A stretch of DNA of 64,000 nucleotides from Schmidtea polychroa (taxonomy: Eukaryota): NCBI GenBank assembly GCA_044892525.1, contig CM097885.1, positions 214,148,001 through 214,212,000 on the forward strand, written 5' to 3'. Every line of letters begins with the position of its first letter. Within the stretch, counting starts at the first letter, position 1. Both the position numbers and the translations under genes were made by a program. Of this stretch, positions 18,777 to 58,903 are shown in pieces. The notes under the pieces are model-generated. The model was not told where the DNA came from. It did not search any database and saw nothing but the letters and a program-made list of their open reading frames with translations.

Positions 18777-19007
18777 AATCACTCCGGGGCCCGTTAAAAT
18801 TGCGCCCCGCAATTCACATAATATCATACGTTTAAATCATACCTTTTTTCGGCATAACAACTAATTTCACGATCATCATTCACACAAACATAAAATTAAA
18901 ATGACTAAATAATACTTTAATTAAACAGATAAAAGGACAAATATAAGCAAGCAGTGGCCACTTTAGGTGACCGGATTTATACACACAAAGTTTATGAATG
19001 GTCGATG

Positions 19008-19643: not shown

Positions 19644-19698
19644 ACTACTATACGAAAATTTTTATTTACAATTATTTACATTGATCATTCATCTTTAA

Positions 19699-20400: not shown

Positions 20401-20574
20401 TTTCTATAATATATACATAATTAATAACTGCGCTACAGTGCGGCTTATACTTATATATTTATATGTTATTTTATAATCAGGGTTACAGTCCCTTTCATAC
20501 TTTTACTGTACCATTAATTTTTTTGGTTGGGATACAGGTCCCGATTTTTATATTTTTTATCTTTCCTTTTATCC

Positions 20575-21612: not shown

Positions 21613-21831
21613 CCTTGTCTAAATAACGATATCATTAACTTAACGTTGTACGCTTATATCTGGTTTATTATTTATTTATTTTTATAATTCGTTATAGGAG
21701 TTGTTTTAGGAGTTTTTCGCTTAAGTTTACCTTTGGTAGATTTGGGGGGAATTTGCTACACTACTATATAATATTTTACTGGATATATACGCCGATATTT
21801 ACAATTAGTATATACAAAATTATTCGTCTCC

Positions 21832-23220
21832 CTACTCAGTCCTACTCTTCCCATCACGCCTCACCGCTATTTTTATGTATATAGTGTCGTTTCTCGTCAT
21901 GTCTTCTACTTTCCGCTGTAGGATGAAATTTGGTGCTCCAGTTGCTGGTCCTTCTTCTTCCAAGGGCCTTTGGTAACATACGAGGTTTCCCGCTGTATGG
22001 AAACTCTGTTCGTGTATACTTTGATAGTTCATCATTGCAAGGTCTATTTTTGCTTTGAATGGCCATTCTATTAACTCGTCGTATGGCCCTTTGCACATCA
22101 AGAAGAATACTGAGAAATGCGTTCCGTATGCACTTCCATCCCCATTGGGGTATGCTTTCATTTTCATTTTATACCCGTTTTTCCATGAGTAGAATGCTGG
22201 ACTTAGTAATGTTGTATCCTTTCCATTTCTCGCTCTCTGCATCTTCTCTTTTATTCCCGTTATTTTCCATATGTACGGAGCCGTTGGTATTAATTCGTTG
22301 AGGTTTAATTCGCTTACTTTTTGATGTAGTTCTTTCACCATAATATTGCTAGTTTCTACTAGATCTGTCTGTATCTTTGTACTTGTTCTCGCCTCTTCAA
22401 ATGCTTCCTTTTCTTCCAATAGTTCTTTTACCAACGCTTTTAGCGAGACTATTTCTCTTTCTAAGTTTTCGGTTTTCCTTTCGTTTTCCTGTACAACCGT
22501 TGACCATATTTCCGCGTGTGTTGATACGTTTTCTGCTAGGTGTTGGGGTAATTCTCCTCGGTGTAATTGTTTCGGACATCCCCATTTTCCTAGCACACAC
22601 GTTATCTTTTTTCTTTCACACTCTTTTAGATGTTGAGCGAGTTTTATTACTCCGGGTTTATCGCATTTGTTGGGACATTCTCCTCTGAATTCTGCGCACA
22701 CTTTCTCCTCTTGTATGTTGTGATGTTGACTGATTAGTTTCTTCCAGGTGTCGTTTTCTCCGCAATACTCGCATTTCTCTAGTCTTTCTTCGCATCGACT
22801 TTGATGTTCTGCTTCTTCATTGACTTTAATCTCTTCTTGGCAACGTTTGCATTGACTGATTTTATACTCACATTGCTCCGTATGTTGCCTCACTTCCCAT
22901 ATCACTCCTCGCCAATTACATGGGGTGTTTTTACATCCTAGGTTTGCATTCAACATATCTTTTACAGCTGCTTTATCTTCGTTTGTATCTCCCAAACTTG
23001 TTATCATTGTTTCTTTGCATACTGGGCACCATTGTGGTCCCTTCTTTATTATCTCCTCTACACATTCTCTGCACATTCTGCATCCACATCTGGTTTGGTG
23101 AGGTTCTCTTAATAAGCTCTTGCATATTCCACACGTTACATGGTTGTGTATTCGAATTGTGGTGGACTTTCTGATTTGTTCAACAATTTCTCTGAATTCT
23201 TCTCGTTGTCGCTTATCCAT
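21832..23220 (-). CDS. TRAF-family protein (RING, TRAF zinc fingers, coiled coil, MATH), intronless, 462 aa
   Basis: RING CGIC...CGCRMCREC...CPVC; TRAF Zn fingers (C..NTPCNW...H...C); MATH motifs YIWKI, SPAFYS..NGYKMKMKAYPNGDG..GTHFSVF, GPYDELIEWPF. Confidence 0.95.
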   Translation of the reverse strand: MDKRQREEFREIVEQIRKSTTIRIHNHVTCGICKSLLREPHQTRCGCRMCRECVEEIIKKGPQWCPVCKETMITSLGDTNEDKAAVKDMLNANLGCKNTPCNWRGVIWEVRQHTEQCEYKISQCKRCQEEIKVNEEAEHQSRCEERLEKCEYCGENDTWKKLISQHHNIQEEKVCAEFRGECPNKCDKPGVIKLAQHLKECERKKITCVLGKWGCPKQLHRGELPQHLAENVSTHAEIWSTVVQENERKTENLEREIVSLKALVKELLEEKEAFEEARTSTKIQTDLVETSNIMVKELHQKVSELNLNELIPTAPYIWKITGIKEKMQRARNGKDTTLLSPAFYSWKNGYKMKMKAYPNGDGSAYGTHFSVFFLMCKGPYDELIEWPFKAKIDLAMMNYQSIHEQSFHTAGNLVCYQRPLEEEGPATGAPNFILQRKVEDMTRNDTIYIKIAVRRDGKSRTE

Positions 23221-23309
23221 TTCTATAATTATATATATACATATATTCGTTACTGGTACAGTTTCGTATTTTTATTTACATTTATTTACATTGCTATTTT
23301 AGGTTATAT

Positions 23310-23669
23310 TTATTGGCTGGAAGAGTCGGCCTCCTGTCCGCCCTCTTCCCTGTTGGTTAACCATTCTGACCAGTCTTCTATCTCCTCTCGCTCCATCTCT
23401 TCCGCGATTCTTATTAACTCCTCTTCTTGCACCTGGCTGTATCGTGATATTCGGTCTATCTCTCGCTGCATTTGTTCTATTTTCATTCGTTGGTCTTCGA
23501 TTATTCTTACATAATTGAAGCCTTTATTTAAACTTTCGACTAAGCTTCTTTGTACAGCGAGTCCTTGTTCCTGTAAATTCGAAATCACTTGAGTTAACAT
23601 TGCACATTGTTGTTTCCACATCTCCTCGGTTGTTGTACTGTGGTTTACTTCCTCGCCTATTCGCTCCAT
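23310..23669 (-). CDS. ~119-aa coiled-coil acidic protein (ORF track begins at a TTG at 23693; first ATG at 23669)
   Basis: Co-oriented ORF between the polyprotein and TRAF; heptad pattern. Confidence 0.65.
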   Translation of the reverse strand: MERIGEEVNHSTTTEEMWKQQCAMLTQVISNLQEQGLAVQRSLVESLNKGFNYVRIIEDQRMKIEQMQREIDRISRYSQVQEEELIRIAEEMEREEIEDWSEWLTNREEGGQEADSSSQ

Positions 23670-23837
23670 TCTTAATTTATATATACTTTTCAATCCTTAT
23701 CTAATTTTATTTTCATATTAATTATCCCCATCATTATATACTATTGATACCGCGCTTATATAAAAATATAGAATACTGTTATATAAATAAATATTTCCTA
23801 CTTACTTTTTACAATCTATATACAGTCATAATCCTTT

Positions 23838-26800
23838 CTATATACGTGAGCTTGGAGGGCGCTGAGCATTCCAGGCCTCCACCCACTGTTCCTGCTTGAT
23901 ATTACTTGGTCGTTTTACACGATGTTGAAAATTTCTTATTCTGGCCATTTCTAGTTCTCCGTGATGCCGTCTATCTTTGATTATTTTTATTGTCCCCCCC
24001 GTTATGATTAAAAAGGCCCCTGTTATTATTATGCCGCTGATCCACATCATCTGTTTTATGCTTATAATTTCCGCTTTTTCCTTGCTCGTTATTGTTGATA
24101 TTGCTTCTGTGCTTTTTAGATTACCGTCTTTGCCATTTCCTTTCATCATTCCTCGTATTCTTGCTATTTCCTCGTTCATACCTTCCTTTGCCATTTTTTG
24201 TATTTTCTCCATCTCCTCCTCGGATACATAATTGTCTTGATGTTTCTCACTGTTTTTCTTGCGTTTTCCTTGCTCATCTTTTTCATCATCGATTTTTCTT
24301 TTCTTTCCTCTTTTCCCAGGGTATCGTCGACATTCTCTCGCTGTATCTTTTCTCCAGATGCATATTGTGTATTCTTTTGGAGGTTGTTGCTGTATTACAT
24401 ATTGTAGACAGTCTTCACCCGGTCTTAATCTTGCGATGCAGACTTTGTGTTCTTTTCTTGGCTGGAGTTGCGTTATCACTACCTCACCTCCTTTTCCCAG
24501 GTGTACCTCCTTCCCTTTGACTTTCGTTATTCTCTTCCCTTCTCGATTTCGGTATGCTTCTTGTATTCTTACTTCCGTTATTGGTTCTGCATCTTCATTT
24601 TTTAACACTAGTCTCTGATAAGCTCTAGACATACATCTTCCTAATATACACCTTTCTTTTAAATCCCATTCTTCTTTTAGATCCCATTGCTGCTCTTGTA
24701 CTTGTTTTTTCTTTTCTTGTTTTAGTTCTTCCTCTTTGTTGTCCTTATTTTCCGTTTCTTTGGCTTCTTTTATCGTTCTCATTCCTCCCTGGGCTGTTAT
24801 CATTTCCACCATTGTTAGTACGAGTATCATTATCATCATATTTGTCTCCATTTCTTTGTTGGTAAAAAGTAGGCATACCCTCTGTTTTCCACTATTCGTC
24901 TTTTCTTCTTGCTTCATTCGGTTTCTCGGGTTATTTTCCTCTTTTTTCCTACTCGCGTCGTTATTTTCTTGATTATTCTCCTCTGATTTCTCTTTCTCTT
25001 TATTCCCGTTTCGACCTTTTTCATTATTATCGTCGTCTTTATCGTCTTTATCGTCTTTATCTCCCCCGCTATCGTTTAAAATGTCGTCCTCGACATTTAT
25101 ATCATTCAACAATCTGCGGTATGCCGTTAGCACTCTGTTTCTTGCTAATTTTGCTTCGAGTTCGAACTCCTTTCTGCCTGTTGCTACATGTCTCTTTCTA
25201 TTCCATTCTTTCACTAATTCTCTTAATTGTATCCGACGATGTTTCCCGATTCGCTTTTGTTCGTTTAGATTCTGCGTGAATTTGAGATCTTCCCTGTTTA
25301 ATACGATCATTATGATTTTCGGAGTTCCTCCTTTTGTTAGTGTATTTTTAACCATAGCATTTTCTCCGTTTTCGTAGAACTCATTTATGTTTATTGCATA
25401 TTTATTGCTTTGTGGTATTCTCCATGTTAGCAGCAACTTCATGGCTTCTAAGTTCATCCGTATCGTGTTCCATTGGAACTGTGACGTGTTTTTACAGATA
25501 TTTTCTGCCTCAGTTCTTGTAGCATTTTTACAAATGAATCTAATCATTTCCAAGTTTGGTTGTATTGTTGCCCAATCCATGGTAGAATTTCCTTCGTTTG
25601 ATATTTCGTCAAGTCTCGAACCTGATTGATGTAGTATATGTAATGTTTTCGGGTGTATATTTGTTATGGCTGCATACATCATTGCTGTTTCCCCTTGTTC
25701 ATTTTTTGCATTAGATTCTTCTCCGAAGTCTCTAAGGATTCTTATGATGGTTATTGCTCTGTTCTCTTTTGCTGCTAAAATGGCTTGTTGTAATGGTGTT
25801 CTTGAGTCTTTTGTTGGTAAGGTGAATGCTAGTGGTATAAATGTTTTTATTTTTCCTATGTCTAGATTTGTGGTCTGATCTCTTGCGTAGGTGTGTACTG
25901 TCTTGGTTATTTTTGCTAGTATCGCTTCATCGGATAGATCTTGCATTTCTTCAAAGAATACTTCTTTAGCCTTACGTACTACTATCTCTTGGTCGGAGTT
26001 TATTGTCTTTGGTTTACTTGTTGTTGCTATATCGGTTATTGGTTGCTCGACTTGTTCCTCAGACTTTCTTGTTTTTACTTTCTTCATTTTTATCTTTTTC
26101 TTGTTCGAACTGTTAATGCGTTCCTCTGCCGTTAGAACTTGAATAATACTTAGGTAGTTTTCTCGAATGTTGTTCATAGTTTCCATCATATGTAAAACAC
26201 TCACGGTGTCCCAAAATTTTACTTGTACTTTATCGGTAAATTGAGATATAGCTTTTTCGAAGTTGGTAATTCGTTTTCTGATTAGTTGTTCGTCTTTGTG
26301 ATTTGAGAATTTTATGCCTCGTTGTAGTAGTTGATTTGGAATTTCGAATAGGTGATGTCCTCTCATTGCTTCTCTCATCAAGGTATTTTCTCCTTTGGTA
26401 AATGTTTCGTTTATATCCACCATATAATCGTTTTTTATCGGGTTCCTCCATGCAATTAGTATTCCAGTAATTGTTGTTAATTTCTCTTTGATTGCAGTAA
26501 ATAGCCCGTCATACATGTTTCCTATCTCTCTATTATCCTCGTATGATATTAGATCTACTAAGATTATGAAGGCTTCCGTACTTTTCCCTTCGATTGCATG
26601 ATGTAATGCATTTTTCTGGTTGTGATCTTGTGTGGTTATCCTTGACCCAGTTTCAAGTAATGCGATGATAATATCTTTAGCTTTATCCCGATTGGCTGCT
26701 ATCATTAGTGGGGTGTAACCTTGGTTGTTTTCTTGATCTGTCGAAATGTTACAATCGCGAAATGCTTCAATTGTTTCTAATATCTGTTCGTTACTACCCA

Positions 26801-29800
26801 CCTTTAAAAGCTTGTGCAGGGGTGTGTCTCCGTAATGGTCTGTGATCGTGAATAATATAGGCCATTGACTTTTAACTACCCTGAGCAATGGGTGTGTTCT
26901 TTCTCGGTTTGCATAATTTTCGATCATTGTTAGCAGACCTCCCAATATCTCAAAATCTAATCTGTCTTCTGCCCATCCGGGCATTTTAACTTTTACTTCC
27001 TTTATGATTTTCTCGGCTTCTGATGGTTGTAACCCTAATCGATTACCTGTTGGTTCGTTTATTTGCTGTAACATGTTTATTCTATACGTTTGTGATCTTG
27101 TCGTTAGTGTACGTCCTTCTGGCTGACTGGTGGCGGTTTTCGGAATTGGCTTACATCGTGCAACATTTACATATATTGGCCTTGTAAAAGGGTTGTTCAC
27201 TAATCGTACTCTTACATTAGTTTCTCCGACGAATAGAATCTCATACGGCCCTTTACCGTTTCGTTGTAATTTTTTGGTGGTTCCTGGAATTAATTCTGGT
27301 GTTTCAATCATCACCCAATCGCCTGTTTGAAACGTATGCTGTTTGACGTTTTTCTTTCTATCATGTAACTCTTTGTAACTTTCTTGATAAAATTTTATAT
27401 TCAATCCTGCGGTTTCCCAGATTTCCTGCATTCTTTCCTTGAACTTGGTTACATAATCGTCTATTTCCATGTACTGTGATATCGGTGGCTGATATTCTAA
27501 ATCCATTGGCATATTGCATTCTCTGCCGTACATCAACTTGAACGGACTCATCTTTGTGGACGCGTGAATCGACATTCTGTAAGCCATGAGGCATAATTTT
27601 ATATATTCATCCCAGTCTCGTTGATGACGATCGACATAATTTGATAACATTTGAATCAGTGTTCCATTGAATCTTTCTGTCATACCATTAGTTTGTGGAT
27701 GGTACGGTGATGTTCTTAATTTTGCGATCTTGAAGTAGTTGGTGACTTCGCTCATTATTTCGCTCATGAAATTCGTTCCTTGATCCGTCAGTATTTGTTT
27801 CGGCGTTCCATATCGACAACATATTTCCTCTACCAATATTTTTGCGATTGTTCTTGCTTTCTGATCTGCCATTGCGAATGCTTCGGGGAATTTTGTCAAA
27901 TAATCTGTGATTACTAATATATATATATTTCCTCTATCTGATTCTGGTAGTGGACCGACTACGTCCATTGATATCATTGTCATTGGTTCTGCTGGCACTG
28001 GCATTGGCTTTAATGGTGCCTTCCATTTTGTTCCCGTGTTTTTTCTGGTTGCGCAAGTTATGCAATTTTTCACCCATTCCGTTACATCCTCGGTCAATGT
28101 AGGCCAAAAATATTTTTGTTTCATTCGTGCCAACGTCTTTTTAGATGACATATGTCCTCCGAGTCTTCCGTCATGGTATTGTGTTAGTAGATCTTTACGT
28201 CTATTCTCGGGAATGCACATCAGTCTTTTCTCGCCATCCATTATCAATAACCAATCTTTCTCGATAATATATCGATGTCGATGTTTATCCATATGCTCCT
28301 TCAATTTTTGATCTTTCTCATATACCTCTGCTTTCCCTGTTTTCACATATTCAATGATTTGCTTCAACTCTGTATCCTCTTGTTGGTCTTTCCGTAATTG
28401 GCAAAAATCTAAATCTTCTGCTACCATCAGACATATTCGTTGCATTTCGTGATCTACTAAATCTGGAAAGATAAATCTGGACATACAATCCGCATTGGCA
28501 TTCGCTCTTCCCGCTTTGAATTTTATGAACGGTGAATATTCTTGTAACTGCATTGCCCATCGCATCAATCTACTTGAAGCTTCTTTGTGTTGACCAAGCC
28601 ATACTAATGGTTGATGATCCGTGGTGATACATATTTCGTGTCCCCATAACAAATATCGAAAATGTTTAATTGCTTGTATGATTGCTAACGCTTCTCTCTC
28701 GGTTACGGAATAGTTTTTCTCGTGCTTTTTAAACGTTCTACTGTAGTATCCAATCACTCTTTCTTTTCCTTCTTCATCCAGTTGTCCTAATATTGCTCCG
28801 GCTGCATATCCACTTGCATCTGTTGCTAATAGGAACGGTTTCTTGAAATCAGGGTGTACTAGTATTGGGGCTTCAATTAATTTATCTCGCAATGTCTCAA
28901 ACGCTTTTTGTTGTTCTGCACCCCAAATAAATGAAATATCCTTTTTCACTAATTCCTGTATTGGTTTCGCAATACCTGCATAGTTTTTGATGAATTTTCG
29001 ATAATATCCGCATAATCCGAGAAATTCTTGAACTTGGGTGACAGTTTTTGGTGCTGGACATGTTTTTATTTTTTCTATGTTCCTTGGATCTGGTTCTTTG
29101 CCTTTTGCTGACACTATGTGTCCTAAGAACGTAACCTTTTCTTTTGCCCAATCACATTTGGATGGTTTAAGTTTCAGTTTCCATTGTCGTAATCGAACGA
29201 ACACATTTCTGATATCTTCCAAATGTTGTTCGAATGTTGCTGAATATATTAATAAATCATCAATATATACCATACACTGCTTGATCCCGTGTGTGACAAA
29301 ATTCATACATCTCTGGAATGATGCTGGGGCGTTGGTCAGTCCGAACGGCATTTTCCTGAATTGGTATAGATCTCGGCCCAATGTGAATGCTGTTTTCTCT
29401 TTGTCTTCCTCCTTGACTTTGATCTGCCAATATCCGCTTTTCAGATCTAAAGATGTAAAATATGCGGCCCCCTGTAACATAAGTAACATCTCATTGATGT
29501 CTGGTAACGGGTATGTGTCTCTTTTTGTTACTGCATTTAATTTCCGATAATCGATACAGAATCTCTGAGTACCGTCTTTTTTCTTCACCATGACTACTGG
29601 AAATTGCCATGGTGAGCAACTTGGTTCGATCACTTGTGCATCTAGCATTTTTTGTACTTCTGCTTCGGCTATCTCTTTTTGCTTCTCTGCTAGTTTGTAT
29701 GGGCGTAGTGCGATTGGAGTTTCGTCTATTAATGGTATTGCGTGTAATGTAACATCGCATGCTCCCAAATCTAAATCCGAAATTGCGAATATATCTTTAT

Positions 29801-32800
29801 ATTCTATCAATAATTGTTGAAGTCTCTCCTTCTCTTTTTCCGTTAGCAAGGTGCTGTCAATTATCCATAATTCGTCAGCTTTCGTTGTTTCGTTGATGAT
29901 TTTTGGTAATTCGATGTCTATCATGGGTGTCAATCTACCCAATCTTTCATTTTCATATATGATCTTGTCTTCTTCCTCAAAATTTGTGATGTTAATTGGT
30001 ATTTCCCCGTCTTCATTTATTGTTATTATTTCTCTTGCTAATGGTAATTCTCGTCGTTTTTCGAATGATTTGCTTGGCTCAAAAATGACTTCTCCTTCCA
30101 TTCCTGCATCCACTTTTATTTGACATATCATCTGTGATTTTGCGGGTACAATTATTTTCTCCGGGCATCTAATTATTGCGTTCATCTTGCATATTCTACC
30201 CATTTTGTCTTTTAGACACATTGTTGTTAAATCGATTACTACTTCCTTAAATAATTCCGGCATTAAATCCGTTCCGATTATACATGGTTCACTCAGTTTG
30301 GGTATCACCGCTAGATACGTTTCAATTTCGTTATCCTGATATCGTAACGTAGTCCACCATCTTCCTACTACGTCTACGGTTTCTTTACTGCATGCAATAA
30401 TATGGATAGTTGTTTGTTCGATATCCTTCCAACATTTACTGGGTATTTGGTTTATTGCTATTGCTGATACGTTTGCTCCGGTATCTATCATGGCGCTTGT
30501 CTCTTTCCCGTTGATTTGGATCATGACTGTTACTGCCGCACCTCCTGGTGAACTCATCACTGCTATCGTTCTTACGTCGTCCGCTTGGTCTACACTTTTC
30601 GTTCTTCGGGTCGGCATATAGTTCATTCCTGGTTGACTTGGTAACTGTGGATACATATTTTGTGTCATGGTCAAAGCTGTTTGTTGTCCAACGATATCTG
30701 GTGGTATGTAACTTCCGTTGGCTATCCAGGTATTTGTTTTTTCTTTCTCCCAATATGGTGCTGTTTCTATTGGCTTTTCATTCGGGTTTCTACTTGGATA
30801 TGGGTATTTGTCATTCCCGTTGTCGTCATCATCACTATCGCTGCTGTTTGATCGATTCCTAAATCTGTCTAAGAATTTTGGTTTGTTCTTTTTCAGTTGC
30901 GTCCTTGTTGCTTCATCATACATCGTTTTCCGAAATCGTCTACCGACTTCCTCGTCAGTTCCTTTTATTTTTGTCAGTATTTTGATCAATCGTTTTATTC
31001 TGTGTATGTCTTTAGAATGACCGTGCAACACCATTGTTTTCGCCAAAAATGGTAGAAAGCCTACTATCAATTTCCAATTTACCTTCTTTTCTCTCTTATA
31101 GATATCAAAACACGCTAACATTTGAGTTAATATTACTCTGACGATCTGAATAATTAAGATGATTCCCAATATTCCTGCCATCATTTGACCGAACACTAGA
31201 AATCTTCCCCACATTGCTTTCATCATGTTTGACGTGGCTTGTTGAAAATGATCAGGTGACAATAATAGTTCGTAATTGGGGCCTGACTGGAAATTCGTTC
31301 CCCCAGTTATGGTAACCATATTCGATAGAATGGATTCCCGTCTTGCTGGGAATAATACGTTTAATCGTGCCGTTTCTAAATCCTCCGGTGAGTACATACC
31401 TGCTTTTGACACATCAATTGGTTTGAAATCTTGTTCTGTTGCGAGTTCTATTAGTCCAAACTTTTTAGGTTCTTGTACTTCGGTTTTTACCGGTAACATT
31501 ATCCATTTCCCATCGGGTTTTTCATATAACGGTCCGTATGCATTTGAACAGTTAAAGGTGTTCGGGTAAAATCCAATTGGGTTCATTATTCGAGTGACGG
31601 GTTGAACGAATCTGTTTCGCCCTTTGTAACTAATTTCTAACTCGTTTGCACATTTCCCTGGTGGAATCGTGGGCTTTCTTGGCAGTCGCGCAAATGTCTT
31701 GGTACATGCATATGTATACATTACCTCTCCCACCATTCTACCAAAATGTCCATCCGGTAACGGGAGTGATGGCATTGTGTTATCTGGGTGTGTTATTGCG
31801 ATGGCTAATTTTGTTTTTAGTATCTCTTTATTCAATGAACAGTCATTTTGTATAAGATCGTAATACACTTTTTGCATTGTCGTTTGTCCTCGGTGAAATA
31901 AAAAGTCCATTTTGTTATTGGCGTACAGGTACAATTTTACGTCCTCTGTTGCTACCTTTCCCACTGCTCGGTCTATTACTTGCCTGGACATGTAGATACC
32001 TGCGTAGTTCGTCCGGTATACTATGCTGTCACATTTGGTGGTCTCTTTTTCTCTAATGAATCTCATGCCGATATCTGGGTCATCTGTAATTAATGCCGTT
32101 GGTGTTTTTTGGGTTGTGAGTCTCTTTTCTTTGGGGGATGGCGGAACTGGTTTCCCATTTCGCATCCTTACGTTTCCATTCTCTTCATCGTCATCCTCGT
32201 TTTCGTAAATTTCTCCTTTTACTTCATTGAATAGAGCACTTTTTAACAATTGGAGTCGGCATTTTTGGGTGTTAGCTTCATATATTATAGTCGAAATTCC
32301 CGTTCTACACACGTTTTCCGTAGCTCTGCATGCTGGGTTGGTTTTCATTTGATAGTTGTTCGCGTCGAATTGTGCTTCGTATTCCTTCAACTCCACTGTG
32401 TAGGACTCAATTACTACTACTCCCGATATCACCTCTCCTCTGATCGTATATGTGCCTCCGTTACATGATCCATCAGTTGATTTTACTCGTCCAGCGACAT
32501 AGATACTTTCTGTCTTGATCATTCCGCTTTGTCCGTGTATTGTTACTCCATCCCTGATTCTCATTGCTCCGGTTCTAAAAAGCTCTTTACAGTCTTCCCG
32601 TTGTATAGGTACTATTTCTTTATCTAATCCCGGTAATATAAGGGTTGAATATGAGTATTGTCCACAGTAATATGCCAACACTTTCTTTGATACTACGCAT
32701 TCTCTAGCTTGCGTTCTAATGAAATCTGATTCTTGGTATACGTGATAGGAGACTTTCTTCTTTACTATATCTAATTTATTCGGAGACGCCTGTCTACATT

Positions 32801-35800
32801 CCTCTATATCTCTCAGGGAGTATCTTTCTCCTATTATCGAATTGTCACAGTCGTAAATAGTAAATCCCGCGGCTCCACTGGTGCAGAGCATCCATATCAT
32901 CATGGTCATCATTAGTGAATTAATCGACGCTTTTCTGCTGGCTGGGTCTTTCAATGGCAATTCCCATTCTAGCTCATGTAGTAACTTCTTCAACCGAATT
33001 TGCATTGATCTCTCTTGCTCGTTTTTTCGTGGCGCTTGTATGAGTCTTTTCCACCCACCGGCGCGGATGATATGTGGTTCGATTGTATTTTCAATGATTG
33101 TGACGGTCATTTCTACATGATTTGCGAATTGTTTGTTAGGTATTTTCCTTGCTGCTAATCCCATCAAATTGTACATTAGATACGTTAATACTACTAAATG
33201 ATGTTCGTCGTCGTTTGCGTTTAAAGTTAATTGTTCAATTACTCTTCTTGTCTCTTCCCAATCGGTTTTAGTGGTTTTTGTCTTCTCTTTGATTAATTTC
33301 GGAATTATTCCGGATATTGTATTCCATAGTTGTCTGGCGTCTACGCTTGCTACTTTTCGTTGCCATAACCGTCGCAATTGTGGGTTCGTTATTATTAGCA
33401 TATCTTTTACTAGCTCTCGTATCCATTTTTCGCCTCTTTCGATAGTTGGCTGGGCCTCTTTTAGATCCCACACTATTTTATCCAGTTTCTCTAATCTGAC
33501 TTGTCCTTGTTCTTGTTTCAGTTGTTCTCTAGTTTTAAATTCCGGTTTTTCTCCTTGCTTCTTGGGTCTCCCTTTTGCCCGTTTTTCCATCATTGTTCCG
33601 GCTTCCCTTGTATTTTCATAATTCGGGTTTCTCTCGTTATCCGTTCTTGGCAATGAGCTATCGTTATTTCTTAGCCATTCGTTCCATTCGTCTATTATTT
33701 TGTCCGTTTGACCTTCTGGTGTTGCTTTCGTTGGTCCTTTCTGTCGTTGGAATTGTTCGTCGGTTTCGGTTTCTGTTGTATTATCGATAATCTCCTCGAT
33801 ACTCAGCTTATTTGGCTGCTGATAGCTAGTTGACGGTTGGCTTGTTGTCCATATTTCGGCTCCTGTCGGCCATCTTACCAGAATTGGTGATCTTTCTCCA
33901 GCTCCTTCATCGCTGTCTTCCAATATAATTTCCTCGATTTCCTCGGTTTCATTCGTTTTACTTGCCACTTTGTTAGGGCTTGGTGTACTCAAGCTACCTT
34001 TCGTAGGTTTACTGGATGTGTTCTTCCTTTTAATCGGTTTTCCCAATGTTTCTACCATTGTCAATACATTGATCTCCCCCAATCTCATGGGTGTTATTCC
34101 GACATCTGCATTATCATCCAACGATTTTCCGAATAGTTGTAGGTGAAACGGAGTTTCGTATGCTAATTTCTTTTTTAACTCTCTGATCTTTGTTGTTGGA
34201 TGTACTTCTGTATCCTCAATGCTTTTGTCGGGATACTTGACTCGGATACGATACCTTTCCTGGGTATCTTGTGCCCATTCTTGGTTTCTCCATTTCCTAA
34301 TAATTTGTTCTAGCTGTTCTGGGTACCATTCGTTATATTGTCTGTATTCCTCAATCGCTTTCGCCATTTCTCTTAGATTGTGGATATTCTCTGATGTCTT
34401 TAGGATGATGTTAGCCAATGCTATTACTTGACGTTTTTGATTTTTTGTTCCCGTTGCTAAGATATCACCTAATTGTTTATATCTTTCCTTCTCTTCTCGT
34501 TCTCGAGCTTCCATCGCTTCTTCGCTATCCATATCGGCATATTCGCGTTCTTTCTTTCTCATCGCATGAATATGTCTGGTTTCCGTTTCACTTTCTGATG
34601 TAACATCCGTTTCGCTTCCGTCGTCCGATGTCGATTCTATTTCGTCCTCTTCGTATTTTGGAGGTTCATCTTCCTCTTCTTCTGATTCACTTTCTATCTC
34701 ACCAATGTCTGTTTCCACGAAAATCCCTTTCCTGATTTTCCATTCTTTGTTTTCCGCATTCCACGTCCTTTCCCATGGGGTTCGTCTGCAGGATCTCACA
34801 CTTAGTTTCTTTATTTTTCCTTGAAGCTCTTTTTCTTTTAACCACTGTTGATGAATTTCAATTATCTCTACTGATTTTTGATATAGCGTTTTCATCCTGT
34901 CTCGTATTTCTTTCTGGTATGTTATATCTCTTGTTCGGAATTCGTCCATGGGCAATATTCTGATGATTTGATGATTATCCCACATTCCCATTTCGCTTAG
35001 CGAGGTGTCGTCTTCGGCCCGTAATATTATTTTATCGTACATCATGACTACGTCATCTATCATCCCGTCGCTACTCTCGCTTCGTACTTTTTCCGTTATC
35101 TCTTGGTTTATCTTGGTTACTAAGTCATCTACCGTACTCTGATTACTCATCTTTATTCGTCGTTTCTCCTCGTTTGGTAACCATATGGTTATTTCTAATT
35201 TCTGCGGTTGCGTTTCTTTCAACCTGCCATATTTGTGGATCAAATTTATGGTTCTCCAATCGCTCATCCTGAGCAATTCTGTATCTCGTAATCGGCTCAT
35301 TAGCTCATGCATGTCTGGAGTTCGTCTTGCTATGAGTAAATCCCAGTTATCTTCGACTTGTTCTTGAATTTGTTTGATTAATTTATCTAGATTTCGTCGC
35401 AAGGTGCATTGTTTTATTTGTTCCAGCTTCAGCTTGATGTTAAAATCGTATTCGGCCTTGGCGTCTTTAGCCCATTCGTGAATATTTGCTGGTTGTTTCT
35501 CTTTATACAATTTCAATATTTGAGTTTCTCCTGGCCAGATCAATGCATCTATTAGGTGCATGTCTGGTTTGATTTGTTCTCCTTGATATTGATACAGATA
35601 TTCTTTCTTTCTCGAGCTGCCCAAATGTTCTCTTATCCAATCGAAAAGGTCGTCTGTGACTGCATTTTTTATCCATATTCTCTCGAGTCCTTTACTCGTT
35701 CCGATTTTTATTACATAGCGTGTTGTCTCCGCTTGTTTCATTTTTTCCATATACTTCTTTATTATCACTTTTTCCTCGTTTGGTATTAGGTCTTTTTCGT

Positions 35801-38273
35801 TTCTTTCTAGTTTCATTATCTTTTGTATGAAGCGTCGGTATGGTATGATGTCAATGAATTCCTGGTTTCTTACCACCACTGGAAGTATTTCCTTTACTTG
35901 TTTTATCGCTTCTTCTCTTTCTTTTCTCAATTTCATTTCGATATTCTCGTCTTCGCTTTCGCTTGTCACGTCGCTTTCTCTTTCATCTTCATCTGCTCCA
36001 ATCTTTTCTCTTAGTTGGTCGATATTTTCATTTAACTGTAACATTTCTCCACCAAGGCTACTCACATAATCCTCATCGTCATCTGTTGACAACACCTTCT
36101 TTGTTGTCCTCATCATATTAATTCGTAAATTTCTCATTCTTGGTACTTTCTTTAACTTGTTGTTCTCGAGTATCGTTAGTTCCTCTGAGTCTAATTCTCG
36201 TATCATATTATGCTTTAGATGATTAATCTGTTTTTCATTTTCGTTATTTTCTGCTTCTGCTTCTGTTTTTGTTTGCTCATTTTCTCTTTCGATTTTATCT
36301 TTTATCTTTTTCCAAAATATTTTCTGAATTCTCTGATTTCCTTTTAGTGGTGTTGTTGAATTTTCCTTTTTTGCTGCTGTAATTGTTTCTTTCGGTTTCT
36401 CTGGTTCGCTCATAGGTACAACTCTTGGATTTTTACCGTAATTGTAACAATATTGCTCCTTTATCTCCTTTACCATCCTCATCATATTTATTCGTAGTGG
36501 TTGTTCTTGTCGCTGCTGAATTCGCTCTCTTTTTATCCTTTCTTCTTCAGCTTGTAGTCTTTGCCATTCTTGTGCATGTTGTTGCACTTCATAATTGTTA
36601 AGATTCTCGGTGCTTCTCATCATGCGTATATTCTGGGTTGGTTGTGGTACTTGCTCTTGTCTCGGTCTCATCATTTGTTGCATCATCTGCTTCATTTGTG
36701 AAATTTCTTGCATCACATTCATTTGCTTTCCCTCACTAGGATTACTTTGTCGTTGCGGATTTGGTGCATAGTTATTATTTCGCTGTGGTGGTCGTTGCTG
36801 TTGGCTCCTTTCTCGACAGTCTCTTGAGATATGACCTAGTTGCCCGCAGTTAAAACATCCTCTTGATTGGCATATATTTTCCGTGTGTCCTCGTCGTCCA
36901 CACCTATTGCAATTTGCGTTTCGGTAACAATCTCTATCCCAATGTCCTGGTTTACCGCATGTTCGGCATTGTTTGTTATCGTTTATATTTCGTCGATTAT
37001 TAAAGTTGTTCCCATTGTTTGAGTTGTTGCGTTCACTGTTATTCCCGTTTGATCGTCCTTGTGGTGGTTTGAAAATTTGATGCGCACCTGGTATAAACTG
37101 ATTCATCTTTGGTTCATGATTATTGTTATCTCCATTTTCCGTTTTCACCGCTGCTGTTGCGATTCTTCCCTCCTCTTGCATGACGTTCATTTGTGCTGGG
37201 AGGTGTAGTTCGCATCTTGTGGCCCAATCTATGGCTTCTTCTAGTGTTTTACACATTTGACATCCCACCGAGGCCCTTACCTCTTCTCGGCGTAGTCCTT
37301 CTATGAAGTAACCCATTAAATTTTCCTCCGGCAAGTTTCCGTTCATGGCCTTCTTTGCCAATCTTCGCAATTCACTTGCGTATAACGTAATTGACTCGTT
37401 TGCTCTTTGTTTTCTACTTGCCAGTTCACCTAACGCTTGATTTATTGGTTTGCTGGCTCCGAATGTTTTTCTCAAAAATGTTTTGATGTTTTCCCAATTG
37501 TCTAATTTCGTATTTCTTTCTTTTGCTTCCAGATATACTTCGAGTGCGCTATCGCACAAAAACAGAGGCATTCGTTTACTAATTGCTTCGGGTGTCCATC
37601 CACACACATCGATATAGACTTCAAAGTTGGTTATGAACGTTGCCAACTTGTTCGCATTCCCGTTGAATGGTTCGCCTCTAAATTTTTCCTTATACTCGTC
37701 AGTTTTTACCACATTCATCTTAATTGGTTCTTGAAACTCTATTATTTCTTTTAAATTTTCCAGCGATGTAGCTAAGCTATGGACGGATAATTCTTCTGTT
37801 GACCCGGTTAGGTTGTTGGTTATATCGGATAGACTTTCTCTACTTCTAGATCGGCTGGGCGTATGTCCGGCTGTGGGGTTTTCTTGATCGTATATCGGTG
37901 TTTTGTGGGGTCTTTTTGCTCCTTGTGATATTCCTCTCTGCTGCCTAAATGATCGTCCTCTTTTGAGTTGATCTAATTCGTCTCCTGAAAATAATACGTC
38001 TCCTGGCTTACTTGAAGATCTAAGGTTGGGTTTATCCGTGATTTTCCTTTTACTCTTTTCTGTCTTTTCACGTGGATTTTCTACGGTTAGCGTCTGCTGA
38101 ATTGGTCGAGTTCGGTTTTGATATTGTCTTCCTTTGTGCGGGTTCTGAATTGCTTTTCCTGGGTTGTTTGTATATTCTCTGGATTCCTCTTGAGCTGGTT
38201 CTGAATTGACTTGGTTGGATGGATGTCTACAATGAAAATATGATATCGTGTTGCCTTTGCTTACACGAATCAA
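23838..38273 (-). CDS. Single Gag-Ubl-Bcl2-Env-PR-RT-RH-IN-Ank-TM polyprotein (4,811 open codons; first in-frame ATG at 37718)
   Basis: 14.4-kb frame with no stop; recognisable CCHC, DTG, YIDD, TDAS, HHCC, D-D-E, GPY and ankyrin motifs. Confidence 0.97.
   Translation of the reverse strand: [4811 protein letters not shown]
25540..26845 (-). other. Two clusters of ankyrin repeats (within polyprotein)
   Basis: [67 protein letters not shown]. Confidence 0.88.
27130..28420 (-). other. Integrase (HHCC, DDE, GPY/F) (within polyprotein)
   Basis: YHDGRLGGH...CITC; MDVVGPL...TDQGTNF...ERFNGTL; GPYEI. Confidence 0.97.
28480..29720 (-). other. Reverse transcriptase and RNase H (within polyprotein)
   Basis: RPYKL, [76 protein letters not shown]. 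Confidence 0.98.
30190..30555 (-). other. Aspartic protease (within polyprotein)
   Basis: [23 protein letters not shown] ... CIIGTDLM. Confidence 0.95.
31020..32918 (-). other. Env-like glycoprotein (chuvirus G / gB-type class III fusogen): signal peptide, ~550-aa ectodomain, TM (within polyprotein)
   Basis: Hydrophobic [18 protein letters not shown] then FTIYDC; 14 ectodomain Cys; [53 protein letters not shown]. Confidence 0.8.
33040..33440 (-). other. Bcl-2-like domain (within polyprotein)
   Basis: [16 protein letters not shown] resembles BH2 (HLEPWIQENGGWDTFV) with Bcl-2-like helix spacing upstream; BH1 NWGR is not retained. Confidence 0.55.
34050..35725 (-). other. Three ubiquitin-like domains (~35500-35725, ~34945-35205, ~34050-34260; within polyprotein)
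   Basis: Best copy [46 protein letters not shown] aligns by eye to ubiquitin [44 protein letters not shown]. Confidence 0.6.
36815..37718 (-). other. Gag capsid-like domain plus three CCHC zinc knuckles (within polyprotein)
   Basis: [16 protein letters not shown]...Q..[18 protein letters not shown]...FIEGL; [42 protein letters not shown]. Confidence 0.92.
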
Positions 38274-38939
38274 TCATTCCTTTTTGCCACATTCAAGCAC
38301 AGACACCGTTTTAGGGCCTCTGTTATATTTTTCTTCATTTCCCCTCATACACTTCTTCGCAGAATATAATTACCCATCAACCCATATTTTTCGTCGATTT
38401 TAAATTATCTATTTGGGGTAGTAACAATTATCTATATAGTCGTATAAATTATCTATAGTTAGCATTTATAATATCGATAGGTCGTTGTCAGTTACTGCCT
38501 ATTACCTCCCATATTTTCTTAATCCTTTTACGCGGTTCCGCTATTTTACTTAATCTTTCATCTCTGTTTCCCCTTATTTGGTTCTACTCTGTAACCAAAA
38601 CAAAATTCGTTTAACCGGTTTAAACCAAAAAAATTCTGTAGAACTTTGTCTACTTGTCTGGGATCCCTTTTTTAATTAATTAATCACCTTCCTCTTTTAC
38701 TCATCACTTATTCTTTATTTTCATTATCTCTTTAATTCATTTTCCTTTTCCGTTTCTCTTTCCCACTGAAAAAAATTTCATTATTACTTCTCACGAGCTC
38801 GTTTAATCCTTTCTAAATTCAAATACCATATTTCAAACTCACTTTGCTTCTAGCTAGCTTTAATATTCCATCTCACTAGTAATTTAAATGTTATCAACTT
38901 GTAGCTTGAATGCTATCTCACTATTACTTTAGGCCTTTA

Positions 38940-39615
38940 CGACTGGCTGGCACTTTTCAACAGCTCAATCTTCTTCTCCTGACCGGTTGGACTATTCAAC
39001 AACTCGATCTTACGACTGGCTGGCACTATTCAACAGCTCAATCTTCTTCATCTCCGAACTGGCTGGACTTTTCACAGCTCAGTTTTAATTTTTCCTGACC
39101 GGCTGGACTTTTCAACAGCTCGGCCTTAATATCTCCGACTGGCTGGACTTTTCACAGCTCAGTTTTAATTTTTCCTGACCGGCTGGACTTTTCAACAGCT
39201 CGGCCTTAATATCTCCGACTGGCTGGACTTTTCACAGCTCAGTTTTAATTTTTCCTGACCGGCTGGACTTTTCAACAGCTCGGCCTTAATATCTCCGACT
39301 GGCTGGACTTTTCACAGCTCAGTTTTAATTTTTCCTGACCGGCTGGACTTTTCAACAGCTCGGCCTTAATATCTCCGACTGGCTGGACTTTTCACAGCTC
39401 AGTTTTAATTTTTCCTGACCGGCTGGACTTTTCAACAGCTCGGCCTTAATATCTCCGACTGGCTGGACTTTTCACAGCTCAGTTTTAATTTTTCCTGACC
39501 GGCTGGACTTTTCAACAGCTCGGCCTTAATATCTCCGACTGGCTGGACTTTTCACAGCTCAGTTTTAATTTTTCCTGACCGGCTGGACTTTTCAACAGCT
39601 CGGCCTTAATATCTC
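38940..39615. repeat. Tandem array in the element leader: about 7 perfect 80-bp units (two alternating 40-bp subunits, 39061-39615) plus 3 degenerate subunits
   Basis: GGCTGGACTTTTCACAGCTCAGTTTTAATTTTTCCTGACC alternating with GGCTGGACTTTTCAACAGCTCGGCCTTAATATCTCCGACT. Confidence 0.97.
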
Positions 39616-40197
39616 TAAACTCTGCATGCTTCCGTTCCTTTTTGTCTTTATTCTATACTGTCATCTTCCTATTTTTACTTTTATTTGTCGACTTAATCTG
39701 TACCGCTTTGGAAGGTTTCCCCTTTCCCCCCTTGCTTAAAACGCAAAACGATCGCATTGATCCATTTCTGCATTGGTATGGTGATCAGCCATACCGCAGA
39801 AACTTTTCAATATTCGCGATGGTACCTCGCCTTACATCTCTTACTCGGGGTGATCGGTTATCCCCTCCCGAACGGTTTTTCAATTATCGTACCTCCCGAA
39901 GGTGGCTCGGTTTATTCCCCCTTTAATCTTATGTTGGGACTAGCTCCACTTTATGTACTCGATTTAAATTTTAAAATACCCTTTCTTCATGGTGAAAATT
40001 ATGATACAACAGATCAAATTATAGCTTCGCAAAATGAAATAAACACACCAAAATGATTTATTGATTATTCAGTCCATGCTACATATGATATATGATACCC
40101 TTATTAAAATATTAATGAATCAAATCAAAAAAAATTAAAATATTTTAGTTTAATTGTTCAACCATCCAATTTCTCTCACCGAGCGACGATCACGTAC

Positions 40198-40677
40198 CTA
40201 ACTGAAGTAGATTGTGTGCTTCTCTTTTATTACACATGTGCACATAGAACACCGGATTAAACTGGCGGCGCATTCGTCACAATGGCTAAGGTGCCCACAA
40301 GGTAGAATCAGAATTTTGACAGGTCGCATCTTGCAAATGTTACAAGTTCTCAAGGCCGCTGCTTTCTCTACTATTGATGTTCGTATCCGCTGAGACAGAG
40401 TTTTGACTCGTTCGCGTATCCTCACATATTCGATGTTCAGCGCTGGGTCGTCGAGACGTTGCTGAAACCATTGGTAATGAATCGACAAGTCGGTATCGGT
40501 ATTCGTTGATCCTAATCTGTCGGTTAGAAAGTTTTGTTTGGATATCAGCGGTGCGTCGTGGCTTTGTTGTTCTAGCAGTTCTATTTGTTTCAGTTTTTCC
40601 CTTAATGTTTTTATTGAATCATTTTCTATTTCGACGAACCGGCTTAGCTGTTGTAGATGTTGTCTAGCGTCTGACAT
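40198..40677 (-). CDS. 159-aa coiled-coil plus IAP-type C-terminal RING protein (no BIR)
   Basis: CNICKMRPVKILILPCGHLSHCDECAASLIRCSMCTCVIKEKHTIYFS*; RING at the extreme C-terminus ending in an aromatic tail as in IAPs. Confidence 0.88.
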   Translation of the reverse strand: MSDARQHLQQLSRFVEIENDSIKTLREKLKQIELLEQQSHDAPLISKQNFLTDRLGSTNTDTDLSIHYQWFQQRLDDPALNIEYVRIRERVKTLSQRIRTSIVEKAAALRTCNICKMRPVKILILPCGHLSHCDECAASLIRCSMCTCVIKEKHTIYFS

Positions 40678-41129
40678 ATCTAAATGAATGTGTTGTTATT
40701 ATTTGTTCTTACTAGTATTAGCAATAATATTATTACGTTGTATTTAATATTCGTTTCTCTTTTATTTGTTATTGTTTCTAGCTTTCGTATTTTATTTAGT
40801 CTTTTTAACAATCCCCGTCGTATTTTTGACTTTAATCTTTTAATTTTATTGTCATTACTTTCTTTTGTCTCCCCTTTTTAATTTAATAAATTAAAATTAA
40901 ACAAAGTAACTAATTCCCGTTTCCTTCTCTCATCATACTCTATCATATACATTCATACTCATTTAGGTTCATCTTTATTCATACATGCTCTATTTTCAGT
41001 TCGTATCATCATTCTATTGTATTACGATATCGATTCGTTTCAGTCCCGATTCCATTTTTAATCATAATTAATTAAATTGTTAATCTAACACATCATAACA
41101 CAATAATAGGTAATCAACAAATCGAATTC

Positions 41130-41147
41130 ATCCCGGCTGAGCCCCCA
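41130..41147 (-). promoter_or_regulatory. Primer-binding site, tRNA-Pro type, 7 nt inside the 5' LTR end
   Basis: Minus strand TGGGGGCTCAGCCGGGAT; 16/18 identical to the MLV tRNA-Pro PBS TGGGGGCTCGTCCGGGAT. Confidence 0.88.
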
Positions 41148-41694
41148 AAAATCGTGTTGGCGTATGTGGGGGAAAAAAAAATATATAGGCATGATTATCA
41201 TACACATCGGGTGTCATTATTCTACTCAGATCATTCCCTCACGCACTCCAAATGATCATTCGCATATTCCCACATATGAGCCCGTGGTGATGTTCCACGT
41301 TGGTACTGCTCACACGGGTTGGGAAGAGTTAGCAGGTGAGCCCCTGCCTTAGGACTACTCCTAACCCTTTCTCGGTTCGGGTTCTACGGTGCCATAGAAG
41401 GTCTTACCCATTCTTTACGCATCATTCGGTCCGACCCTGGTCCAAAGGGTACGACATTTAAGTTTCTACTATATTTTCGTGATCCTTCTCTCATGCAATT
41501 CAACCGTAGCAAGTCATACATACAATTTACACAATCAAAGAAAAATCGAACAGTTATATTAGAACGGAACATCAAACTACATTCAATATTGTTTAAATAA
41601 ATACAAAAAAACATTAAAGATTAGTCACGAGATAACGTCGCTTCTTCGAGTTCGTTAGTAATAGCAGGGGAATCGAGACCCGAGAGAGAATTGG

Positions 41695-42459
41695 CTACGA
41701 GAATGCTTCTCCTTCTGCGAGCATCTCGTCGATGTCAACGGGCAACCGGCGGTCTTCGAGGAATTTAATACTGCCGGCCGGAACTACCCGGAATACTTCC
41801 TTTGTAGGAATGGAATGGGTAACTGTAATTTCCTTGATAGTTGCTTTGGCCACAGATAACGATGCTTCGAGCGCGGCCATGGCATTTCTACGCTTCTGAT
41901 TTTTTTCAGAACGCGTCAGCCGCTTACGCTTTCGATGGGGAAATGTAGCTTCTGCTGGGGACTGAAGGAGGTGTGGCACGAGTACTGGAGCCAAGATAGG
42001 GTCCGATGAACCGCCAGCCATAGGTCGATGGCCCGAAAGAACTGGGGCGGGAATTGGCGGCATTTGTGGGCCATGCCCTTTACAACTGGATGTTGATGAG
42101 GTTTCAGCTAATTTGTGGTGCATTGGGAACACGTTAGTCCCATCTTGTATCGGGTACTCGCGAACTCGCTTCGCTAGTTCTGATTCGGAATACACCTTGT
42201 GCAGTGCCTCTGATTGGGCCTTTATGGTTAGCCTCTGGCACCTGCTTTCTTCCAGGAGACTGTCACGGCAGTGCTCCAAACGCAGAATCTTGCTCTTCTC
42301 CTCCTTCATTTGTGGTGGGGAGAACCACGTTCCCTCATAGAGGTCAATTCTCTTCTTCAATTCCCCGATGTACAAGTGGAGCTGTGCGATATCGGCATTT
42401 TTATCAGCACAGGAGAAGCAAGGTCTGAGGGTTTTCCCGGAACTGGTTGAGGTATTCAT
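41695..42459 (-). CDS. LTR-encoded 254-aa protein, 5' LTR copy
   Basis: Same protein as 15133..15897; one synonymous substitution noticed (15196 A vs 41758 G). Confidence 0.75.
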   Translation of the reverse strand: MNTSTSSGKTLRPCFSCADKNADIAQLHLYIGELKKRIDLYEGTWFSPPQMKEEKSKILRLEHCRDSLLEESRCQRLTIKAQSEALHKVYSESELAKRVREYPIQDGTNVFPMHHKLAETSSTSSCKGHGPQMPPIPAPVLSGHRPMAGGSSDPILAPVLVPHLLQSPAEATFPHRKRKRLTRSEKNQKRRNAMAALEASLSVAKATIKEITVTHSIPTKEVFRVVPAGSIKFLEDRRLPVDIDEMLAEGEAFS

Positions 42460-44811: not shown

Positions 44812-44834
44812 ATATATAGTATTTTTCGTCCAAT
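44812..44834 (-). promoter_or_regulatory. Putative LTR core promoter (ATTGG/CCAAT box plus TATA); copy at 18250..18272
   Basis: CCTGATTGGACGAAAAATACTATATAT; same blocks conserved in the diverged LTR at 57422..57458 (CCTGATTGGA...GACGAAAATACTATAAAT). Confidence 0.6.
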
Positions 44835-45338
44835 CAGGACGCTACCTGCTTGTATTTTTACTATTTATTATTATTTTTCTGTTTTTTATTATAATATATT
44901 AGATTTTTAATGACTTAACTTATTTCTTATTATTATTTTATTTATTTTCCTATTTTTATTATTTTCCTCCTATTTTTCTTGTAGGTTTATTGCTACTTTA
45001 TTGTAATATAATTTTTTTGTTTTAATTAGACTTAAAGATAGTTTTATTTTTTATTTATTTCTTAAATTTCTCTTTTATTTGTTGTCACTTTTTTACTTAT
45101 TCTATTCTATTTCATCTGCTGGGTCCTAAATCGCTTTATTTCCAAATCTCAAGGGGTTTATTGGATTTTATTTAGTTTGTTTACTTATTCTTATTCTTTT
45201 ATTGATATTTTATTGTTCCTTTTTGATTTATTAGCGAGAATTTGATGGTACTTTATTTTTTTATTTTATTTCGTTTATTTTTCAAAGATTACTTTTCTAT
45301 TCGCTCCAGTTTTCGAAACTCCACGTTTTAGCCCAACA

Positions 45339-58822: not shown

Positions 58823-58903
58823 TGACGACAATGACGGTAACAACAATAATCATTATACCAATGTTGAGGTCTCGATATTCGGGAACACTCAACTTATCTG
58901 GTT

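Follow-up and report, generated by a model that had tools for sequence, protein, structure and literature searches.

How can a retroelement bring its reverse transcriptase and integrase into a particle when a membrane protein is encoded between Gag and Pol in one and the same open frame? The question is raised by a stretch of 64,000 nucleotides from Schmidtea polychroa (GenBank assembly GCA_044892525.1, contig CM097885.1, positions 214,148,001 to 214,212,000 of the forward strand), hereafter the window, meaning this 64-kb stretch at its full length. It holds a complete, Burro-like Ty3/gypsy element with long terminal repeats (LTRs), which occupies 30,746 bp at 14593..45338 on the minus strand. 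A preliminary description of this DNA had pointed to an Env resembling class III fusogens, placed in frame between Gag and the protease, from whose tail Pol would hang. The answer that we favor is that the Env domain of this recently inserted giant element of the Burro type is probably targeted internally to the endoplasmic reticulum (ER), with Pol tethered to the Env tail.

Env and its neighbors in a single open frame

In the polyprotein of the element, Pfam places Gag, accessory domains, Env, protease (PR), reverse transcriptase (RT), RNase H (RH), integrase (IN), and ankyrin repeats in this order, all in one chain, with integrase after RNase H as is the Ty3/gypsy order. The features of this frame are the following, all on the minus strand (-) and with amino acids (aa) counted from stop to stop:

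23838-38273 (-): one uninterrupted frame, 4,811 codons long between stops and 4,626 aa when counted from the first ATG at 37718
37287..37568 (-): Retrotrans_gag capsid domain, aa 236-329 (PF03732, E 2.7e-10)
36813..36970 (-): nucleocapsid with three CCHC zinc knuckles, about aa 436-487, start approximate (PF00098, E 3.5e-10)
33051..33251 (-): Bcl-2-like segment with a terminal BH2-like GGW motif, aa 1675-1741, a weak assignment
32865..32918 (-): putative internal signal peptide, aa 1786-1803, from hydropathy, with a predicted cut after aa 1803
31185..32864 (-): ectodomain of the class III fusogen type, aa 1804-2363, 14 cysteines, from Pfam and the predicted fold
31128..31184 (-): transmembrane helix (TM), aa 2364-2382, from hydropathy (KD19 2.53)
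31026..31082 (-): second hydrophobic helix, conserved, aa 2398-2416, from hydropathy
30564..31025 (-): low-complexity cytoplasmic tail or linker, aa 2417-2570, with TIAVM, a candidate protease site, at its end
30252..30527 (-): aspartic protease, aa 2583-2674, DTG at aa 2597-2599 (PF00077, RVP, E 2.1e-7)
29112..29588 (-): reverse transcriptase, aa 2896-3054 (PF00078, RVT_1, E 3.9e-36)
28536..28925 (-): RNase H, aa 3117-3246 (PF17917/PF17919)
27696..28214 (-): integrase zinc finger and core, aa 3354-3526 (PF17921, PF00665)
25632..26777 (-): ankyrin repeats 3' of integrase, aa 3833-3907 and 4174-4214 (Pfam)

The Env region itself, 30555-32918 (-), corresponds to aa 2573-1786 of the 4,811-codon frame and runs without a stop between Gag and protease, as the preliminary description had read it. 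Every feature that it had listed was found again, namely a hydrophobic stretch at aa 1787-1803 with small residues at its end, immediately N-terminal to YDC (aa 1807-1809), the 14 cysteines (aa 1809-2242), the GMYSPEDL...LFP motif (aa 2292-2309), the TM, TIAVM (aa 2569-2573), and the DTG of the protease. One N-glycosylation sequon lies at aa 2241.

The chuvirus-like, class III identity proposed for this Env was borne out at the levels of family and predicted fold. The Pfam family of the Monjiviricetes viral fusion glycoprotein, PF24664, matched with E 6.7e-72 in the full chain and E 1.3e-73 on the Env region alone (248 bits against a cut-off of 27), and 12 cysteine positions are at least 90% conserved among 121 Env sequences. 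From the alignment of these 121 sequences, AlphaFold gave a model with a predicted local distance difference test (pLDDT) of 90 and a predicted TM-score (pTM) of 0.70, showing beta-rich domains and a central helix of 48 residues. With Foldseek, a chuvirus-like G ranked first among the viral models of BFVD (E 1.4e-38, TM-score up to 0.73), and post-fusion herpesvirus gB ranked first in the PDB (E 5.7e-14), all 34 matches listed there being gB. Comparison with gB by VIA gave Z 11.1 and a root-mean-square deviation of 6.4 over 382 aligned residues, and a profile search of PDB sequences returned 33 weak matches, each of them gB. The Atlas comparison placed PF24664 and rhabdovirus-G clusters at 0.91-0.94, values of low recognition value and thus weak. 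A word-indexed protein search with the ectodomain gave no match among proteins of similar length, and a single-sequence search of the PDB gave none either. The class III match spans the whole ectodomain, and among the matches listed no family or structure of the class I F type (baculovirus F or Drosophila gypsy) appeared, all of those listed being class III. At the level of the predicted fold, the assignment of Env as a class III fusogen of the chuvirus-G/herpes-gB type is solid. The likeness to chuvirus G (PF24664) and herpes gB extends to the signal peptide, the cysteine-rich beta ectodomain, the long central helix, and the C-terminal TM, but those glycoproteins are stand-alone type I proteins with a short tail, whereas the Env of the window is built into a longer chain, preceded by about 1,600 aa and followed by 2,400 aa.

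Directly upstream of Env sits the Bcl-2-like segment (aa 1675-1741), which Pfam recognized at E 0.038. A profile built from six sequences of the segment reached Bcl-xL at E 0.003, and the best 60 of 102 rows were all of the Bcl-2 family. The region gave no match in a single-sequence search of the PDB and nothing useful in the Atlas comparison, and its structural model had a low pLDDT of 50, for which Foldseek found no match at E <=0.001 (BAX and Bcl-xL appeared at E 2-3 only) and the VIA-wide comparison reached at most Z 6.8, with unrelated bundles. Among 13 polyproteins that we compared (that of the window, that of a second family of the same genome, and 11 library homologues with a near-full-length Env match), a BH2-like GGW lies 42-76 aa upstream of the mature Env start in five, with a sixth, weak case, and at least seven lack it. 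Bcl-2 proteins carry a tail anchor at about the corresponding distance. Hypothetically, the spent Env signal peptide might also hold the Bcl-2-like domain to the membrane as its tail anchor, in those lineages that have such a domain.

Copies of the element and the order of its domains

That separate open reading frames (ORFs) were joined by misassembly, or fused by chance in one copy, is vanishingly improbable; nothing was found in favor of this explanation, and it was rejected. A search of the same genome yielded 2,804 candidates, of which 77 were scored, all 99-100% identical, and in 39 of these 77, on several chromosomes, the frame stays open over 4,700 codons or more (one of the 39 with a stop flagged inside the match); 15 of the scored copies, that of the window included, have exactly 4,811 codons. 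The stretch from signal peptide to protease was stop-free at all 10 loci fetched, again including that of the window. Two more families of the genome, with about 37% Env identity, likewise encode Gag, Env, and Pol together, each family in one frame, of 3,334 and 3,565 codons respectively, and the same order is found in many distant homologues and in published relatives (PMC6431247). In short contigs from four sequencing runs covering the stretch, none of the 12 indels listed (of 17) falls between the first ATG and the stop. A low-depth joint in these contigs, 30536-32467, skips most of Env and is too thin to interpret.

The survey of relatives that the preliminary description had suggested was made by a HMMER library search with the ectodomain, which gave 973 matches at E <=0.001. 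In 10 of 22 homologues scanned, PR or Pol follows Env in one chain, with a Gag feature before Env in two of these 10, and a single one of the 22 (P0069, with DUF5641 and then Env) shows the other, BEL/Pao-like order. Several relatives (P0003, P0004, P0005, P0006, P0010, and P0019) apparently carry at least two tandem aspartic-protease domains after Env, the element of the window having one. A polyprotein of the same kind, Env-PR-RT-IN, has been deposited as a protein of a Flavobacteriaceae metagenome-assembled genome (P0008, HBK71150.1), and probably represents animal DNA that ended up in a bacterial bin. In S. polychroa itself, a further subfamily at 94% protease identity has many copies with an open frame of 4,732 codons, hence at least two recent bursts in the element family.

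Membrane topology, Pol packaging, and selection on Env

The evidence for an internal signal peptide comes from the 13 polyproteins mentioned above, in all of which a hydrophobic h-region (KD11 2.05-3.42) lies immediately N-terminal to the mature Env start, and from five aligned stand-alone glycoproteins, in each of which the same position is occupied by the N-terminal signal peptide. A signal sequence together with one strong C-terminal TM is the signature of a type I protein at the sequence level, and signal peptidase is predicted to cut after aa 1803. The second helix (aa 2398-2416), on which the topology turns and which the preliminary description had not mentioned, exceeds the TM in polarity in all 13 polyproteins and would cost 3.7-11.9 kcal/mol to insert, against -2.1 to 3.2 kcal/mol for the TM (approximate values); it is kept in 12 of the 13, being degenerate in P0007, and also in the stand-alone glycoproteins. 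We infer that this helix is juxtamembrane or amphipathic and too polar to span the membrane. The simplest topology would thus leave Gag cytosolic, the ectodomain luminal, and Pol cytosolic, in agreement with the one-TM arrangement of the preliminary description, which the sequence supports as an inference.

It is improbable, by comparison, that the second helix also spans the membrane, or that many chains bypass the signal peptide, so that topologies are mixed and the luminal fraction would set the Env:Pol ratio. The conservation of the helix in those 12 polyproteins, with no amino-acid change in 25 copies, is compatible with such an arrangement, as is the signal h-region of the window copy, the weakest of the set; but the insertion cost of the helix exceeds that of the TM on the approximate scale used, and, once the signal peptide has been used, RT and integrase would end up luminal after a second pass, a location incompatible with replication.

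With a single TM, synthesis might proceed in the following way. Gag and the accessory domains would be made in the cytosol, after which the internal signal sequence would bring the ribosome to the ER, the ectodomain would be translocated, and signal peptidase would cut after aa 1803; the TM would then halt transfer, and PR-RT-RH-IN would again be synthesized on the cytosolic side. Flavivirus and alphavirus polyproteins behave likewise at the membrane. From a cytosolic Gag, a luminal ectodomain, and a cytosolic Pol, it follows that signal peptidase would separate Gag from Pol, with Gag staying anchored in the membrane through the spent signal peptide. Pol would remain on the Env tail, and particles budding where both sit would gather Pol through Env, before the protease of the element releases the domains at a recurring motif, represented by TIAVM in front of PR; motifs of this kind recur at domain borders, with 11 matches to the regular expression. 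Env would most likely be the predicted fusogen that moves particles between host cells, such as out of differentiated cells into stem or germ cells.

A ratio of 1:1:1 for Gag, Env, and Pol, which the preliminary description had drawn from the single frame, holds at most at synthesis, and only without splicing or selective decay. LTR elements generally need an excess of Gag, and single-ORF elements correct the ratio by splicing or degradation. Such a correction underlies a further explanation, in which the order is real, but spliced or shortened messages (Gag-only, or Gag-Pol without Env) or the decay of Env-Pol would do away with 1:1:1, and Pol would be packaged in the usual manner. Besides the general need for Gag, two canonical slippery heptamers just before the signal peptide, at aa 1684 and 1750, where a -1 shift meets a stop within 29 and 17 codons, speak for this explanation. 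Slippery heptamers in register are nevertheless under-represented, with 19 observed in the polyprotein where synonymous shuffles give 30.6 +/- 5.0, and between Gag and Env 6 where they give 9.2 +/- 2.7, so that no sign of a programmed frameshift, in the form of an enrichment of slippery sites over shuffles, was seen in the polyprotein. Moreover, Env is constrained like RT in recently spread copies, as described below, which a dispensable exon would not need. We regard the spliced-message explanation as unlikely, if still one to be reckoned with.

This constraint was measured among 30 loci chosen by protease identity, which, after removal of the window's own locus and of four others with indels or large distance, left 25 to compare with the window (a choice of copies by Env identity biases the ectodomain count). 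In the C-terminal half of the ectodomain (Env aa 2075-2363), there were 99 synonymous changes, 15 amino-acid changes, and 1 stop change, a ratio of amino-acid to synonymous polymorphism (pN/pS) of 0.042, and among the variants shared by at least two copies 66 synonymous changes stood against 1 amino-acid change. The TM and second helix together had 36 synonymous and no amino-acid changes (pN/pS 0), RT-RNase H had 113 synonymous and 16 amino-acid changes (pN/pS 0.037), and pN/pS was 0.08 in the tail and 0.15 in the PR-RT linker. The second family shows a weaker skew in Env, with 46 synonymous and 40 amino-acid changes over six copies, its amino-acid share still being lower than at neutrality, where about 3.6 amino-acid changes would stand against 1 synonymous change. 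Between families, the Env ectodomain is more conserved (37% identity) than the protease (27%) or the Gag capsid (22-26%). Given that the need for Pol keeps the frame open and does not preserve the residues of Env, the conservation of amino acids tells on Env itself. Env is thus shown to be under purifying selection as strong as that on RT, in a family that is currently spreading.

Such a constraint fits infection and fits an obligatory role as a tether as well, which brings in another explanation, namely that Env is a membrane scaffold and no fusogen, tethering Pol and organizing budding into the ER, with the particles staying in the cell that produced them. A scaffold alone would account for the kept signal peptide, TM, and juxtamembrane helix, and no fusion data were found in the literature covered. 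What makes the scaffold explanation quite unlikely is that the whole ectodomain retains the class III fold and its cysteines (the 12 conserved positions among 121 sequences), and that Env is better conserved between families than Gag capsid and protease (37% against 22-26% and 27%), besides being constrained within the family at the level of RT.

Several considerations weigh against a fusogenic Env that carries Pol on its tail. Expression, translocation, cleavage, particles, and fusion are all presumed, and the candidate cut at TIAVM is suggested by the recurrence of a motif. The signal h-region of the window copy is the weakest of the 13 (KD11 2.05), and because of this a partial use of the signal peptide is possible. 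The hydropathy and insertion sums use approximate scale values without position terms. The TM-scores of the Env monomer model against gB are low, at 0.35-0.44. The copies compared are related, and the counts of changes are not independent events; selection, furthermore, marks Env as needed, not as membrane-fusing. Equimolar Gag and Pol are also unusual among LTR elements, and a correcting step may exist.

Tentatively, and with less confidence than in the tethered Env itself, we would go one step further and suggest that Burro-type elements may be enveloped viruses whose enzymes reach the particle with no need for a Gag-Pol fusion, host signal peptidase dividing the polyprotein into a Gag part and an Env-Pol part. 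In such viruses, Pol would enter by way of the Env tail, Env would be indispensable even for transposition, and the spent signal peptide would anchor the Bcl-2-like domain where there is one. An Env indispensable for ordinary transposition would explain why selection on it is at the level of RT.

Published relatives, accessory genes, and significance

The preliminary description knew of no earlier account of the gene order, but the order is in print both for Burro (PMC6431247) and for the GAG-ENV-POL "errantiviruses" (PMC13524379). Burro/GYPSM1 of planarians is more than 30 kb long, with very long LTRs, a GYPSM1 polyprotein of 4,873 aa, accessory ORFs, and tandem repeats, and its domains include three CCHC knuckles and BCL2-like, MATH-TRAF, and ankyrin domains; an env homology in frame between BCL2 and PR, matching mononegavirus glycoproteins, was reported in 2019 (PMC6431247). 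The element of the window has in common with Burro a length of about 30 kb, multi-kb LTRs, a polyprotein of about 4,800 aa, three CCHC knuckles, an in-frame env followed by PR-RT-RH-IN, ankyrin repeats, MATH/TRAF cargo, tandem repeats, and accessory ORFs. The BCL2-like domain before env is stated for Burro, whereas the match here is weak (the Pfam E of 0.038 given above), and env was likened there to gypsy Env, to baculovirus, retrovirus, and paramyxovirus fusion proteins, and to mononegavirus glycoproteins (PMC6431247), whereas here it has a predicted class III fold. Section 7 of that paper, on Burro, says nothing of a signal peptide, of topology, or of how Pol is packaged (PMC6431247).

The GAG-ENV-POL errantiviruses, with an ENV of the HSV/gB kind (HSV, herpes simplex virus), are known from Platyhelminthes, Nematoda, and Bryozoa, and share both gene order and Env class with the element of the window; the supplement lists six S. 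mediterranea elements as ENV_HSV (PMC13524379). The window element is none of these six: counted by eye, its Env agrees with the row of Smed_errantivirus_5 at about 87 of 157 positions (about 55%), and the Env of the second family of the genome is nearly identical, again by eye, to the row of Smed_errantivirus_2 (PMC13524379). The LTR search in that study left out LTRs more than 14 kb apart, and in its main text the consequences of an in-frame fusion are not treated under polyprotein, frameshift, splicing, or single-ORF wording (PMC13524379). BEL/Pao elements with a chuvirus-like env have the same Env family, but there Env follows the end of integrase (PMC13524379; P0069 above). The RNA of BURRO1 is strongly de-repressed after RNA interference against smedwi-2 (PMC8532177).

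Gene order and fusogen class are both already published, and the window element is a further member of the planarian GAG-ENV-POL group. Non-canonical endogenous retroviruses of nematodes, for which Sacco et al. (2022) are cited in PMC13524379, likewise have env before pol in Ty3/gypsy and a glycoprotein of an RNA-virus lineage, but belong to another phylum and are reportedly smaller. Sacco et al. reportedly described them as having one continuous gag-env-pro-pol ORF. What we add is that all 13 polyproteins retain the putative signal peptide and that Env is under selection at the level of RT. In our searches, which covered open-access text, we found neither the argument from Env topology nor a separation of Gag and Pol by signal peptidase nor selection on Env.

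Outside the polyprotein, the element contains the following features:

14593..45338 (-): whole element, with a 4-bp target-site duplication at 14589-14592 and 45339-45342
41155..45338 (-): 5' LTR, 4,184 bp, TG...CA ends
14593..18776 (-): 3' LTR, 4,184 bp
21832..23220 (-): accessory TRAF-like ORF, complete, with RING, TRAF zinc finger, and MATH (E 2.8e-25), downstream of the polyprotein
40198..40677 (-): accessory ORF of 159 aa with a C-terminal RING finger (PF13920, E 3e-8), upstream of the polyprotein

The two LTRs differ by a single mismatch over 4,184 bp, and for this reason the insertion must be very recent. Each LTR contains an ATG-started ORF of 254 aa without a Pfam match (15133-15897 and 41695-42459, -). 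At about 41130-41147, 7 nt inside the 5' LTR end, an 18-nt stretch beginning with TGG resembles a tRNA primer site, which we take to be that of tRNA-Pro; the 64-kb window holds no tRNA gene against which it could be checked. The 3' LTR is not preceded by a purine-rich tract, a GC-rich near-palindrome standing there instead (about 18777-18800). The leader that separates the upstream ORF from gag contains an 80-bp tandem array of near-identical units (38978-39697), and beyond the element, at 58823-59046, lies a perfect inverted repeat of 112 nt with a TA run at its center.

Cargo related to apoptosis and ubiquitin is present in the TRAF-like ORF and in the RING ORF, the RING of the latter presumably being similar to IAP-type RINGs; Pfam detected no BIR domain. 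Hints of ubiquitin-like or Ras-binding folds at two places within aa ~1020-1420 (about 34010-35220, -), after Gag and ahead of the Bcl-2-like segment, are weak (E 0.002-0.07). Further accessory ORFs on the minus strand, at 20575-21612, 19699-20400, 19008-19643, and 23310-23669, are mostly coiled-coil-like, and the three of them that were scanned had no Pfam match; the product of 19008-19643 has an apparent N-terminal signal and TM. Near the end of the polyprotein, two hydrophobic segments, aa 4479-4497 (about 24783-24839, -) and aa 4747-4765 (about 23979-24035, -), bracket a stretch of 250 aa with several cysteines, and aa 4479-4765 may possibly comprise a second internal signal peptide and TM, hence a second luminal domain. 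As for MATH/TRAF, it is encoded here in a separate downstream ORF, whereas in Burro it forms part of the polyprotein in S. mediterranea and belongs to an upstream ORF in D. tigrina, and the downstream TRAF-like ORF is a third position for this cargo, beyond the two in PMC6431247.

With gene order and Env class in print, the remaining interest of the element is mechanistic, namely how Pol gets packaged when a membrane protein separates it from Gag. Where a type I membrane protein interrupts a polyprotein, Gag and Pol necessarily end up on different chains, a situation that does not arise in retroviruses with a Gag-Pol fusion, and the selection data indicate that the Env of a young, high-copy family is still needed. 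If Pol is indeed tethered to Env, this would be a separate route by which reverse transcriptase is packaged, and Burro would be an infectious endogenous virus of a stem-cell-rich animal.

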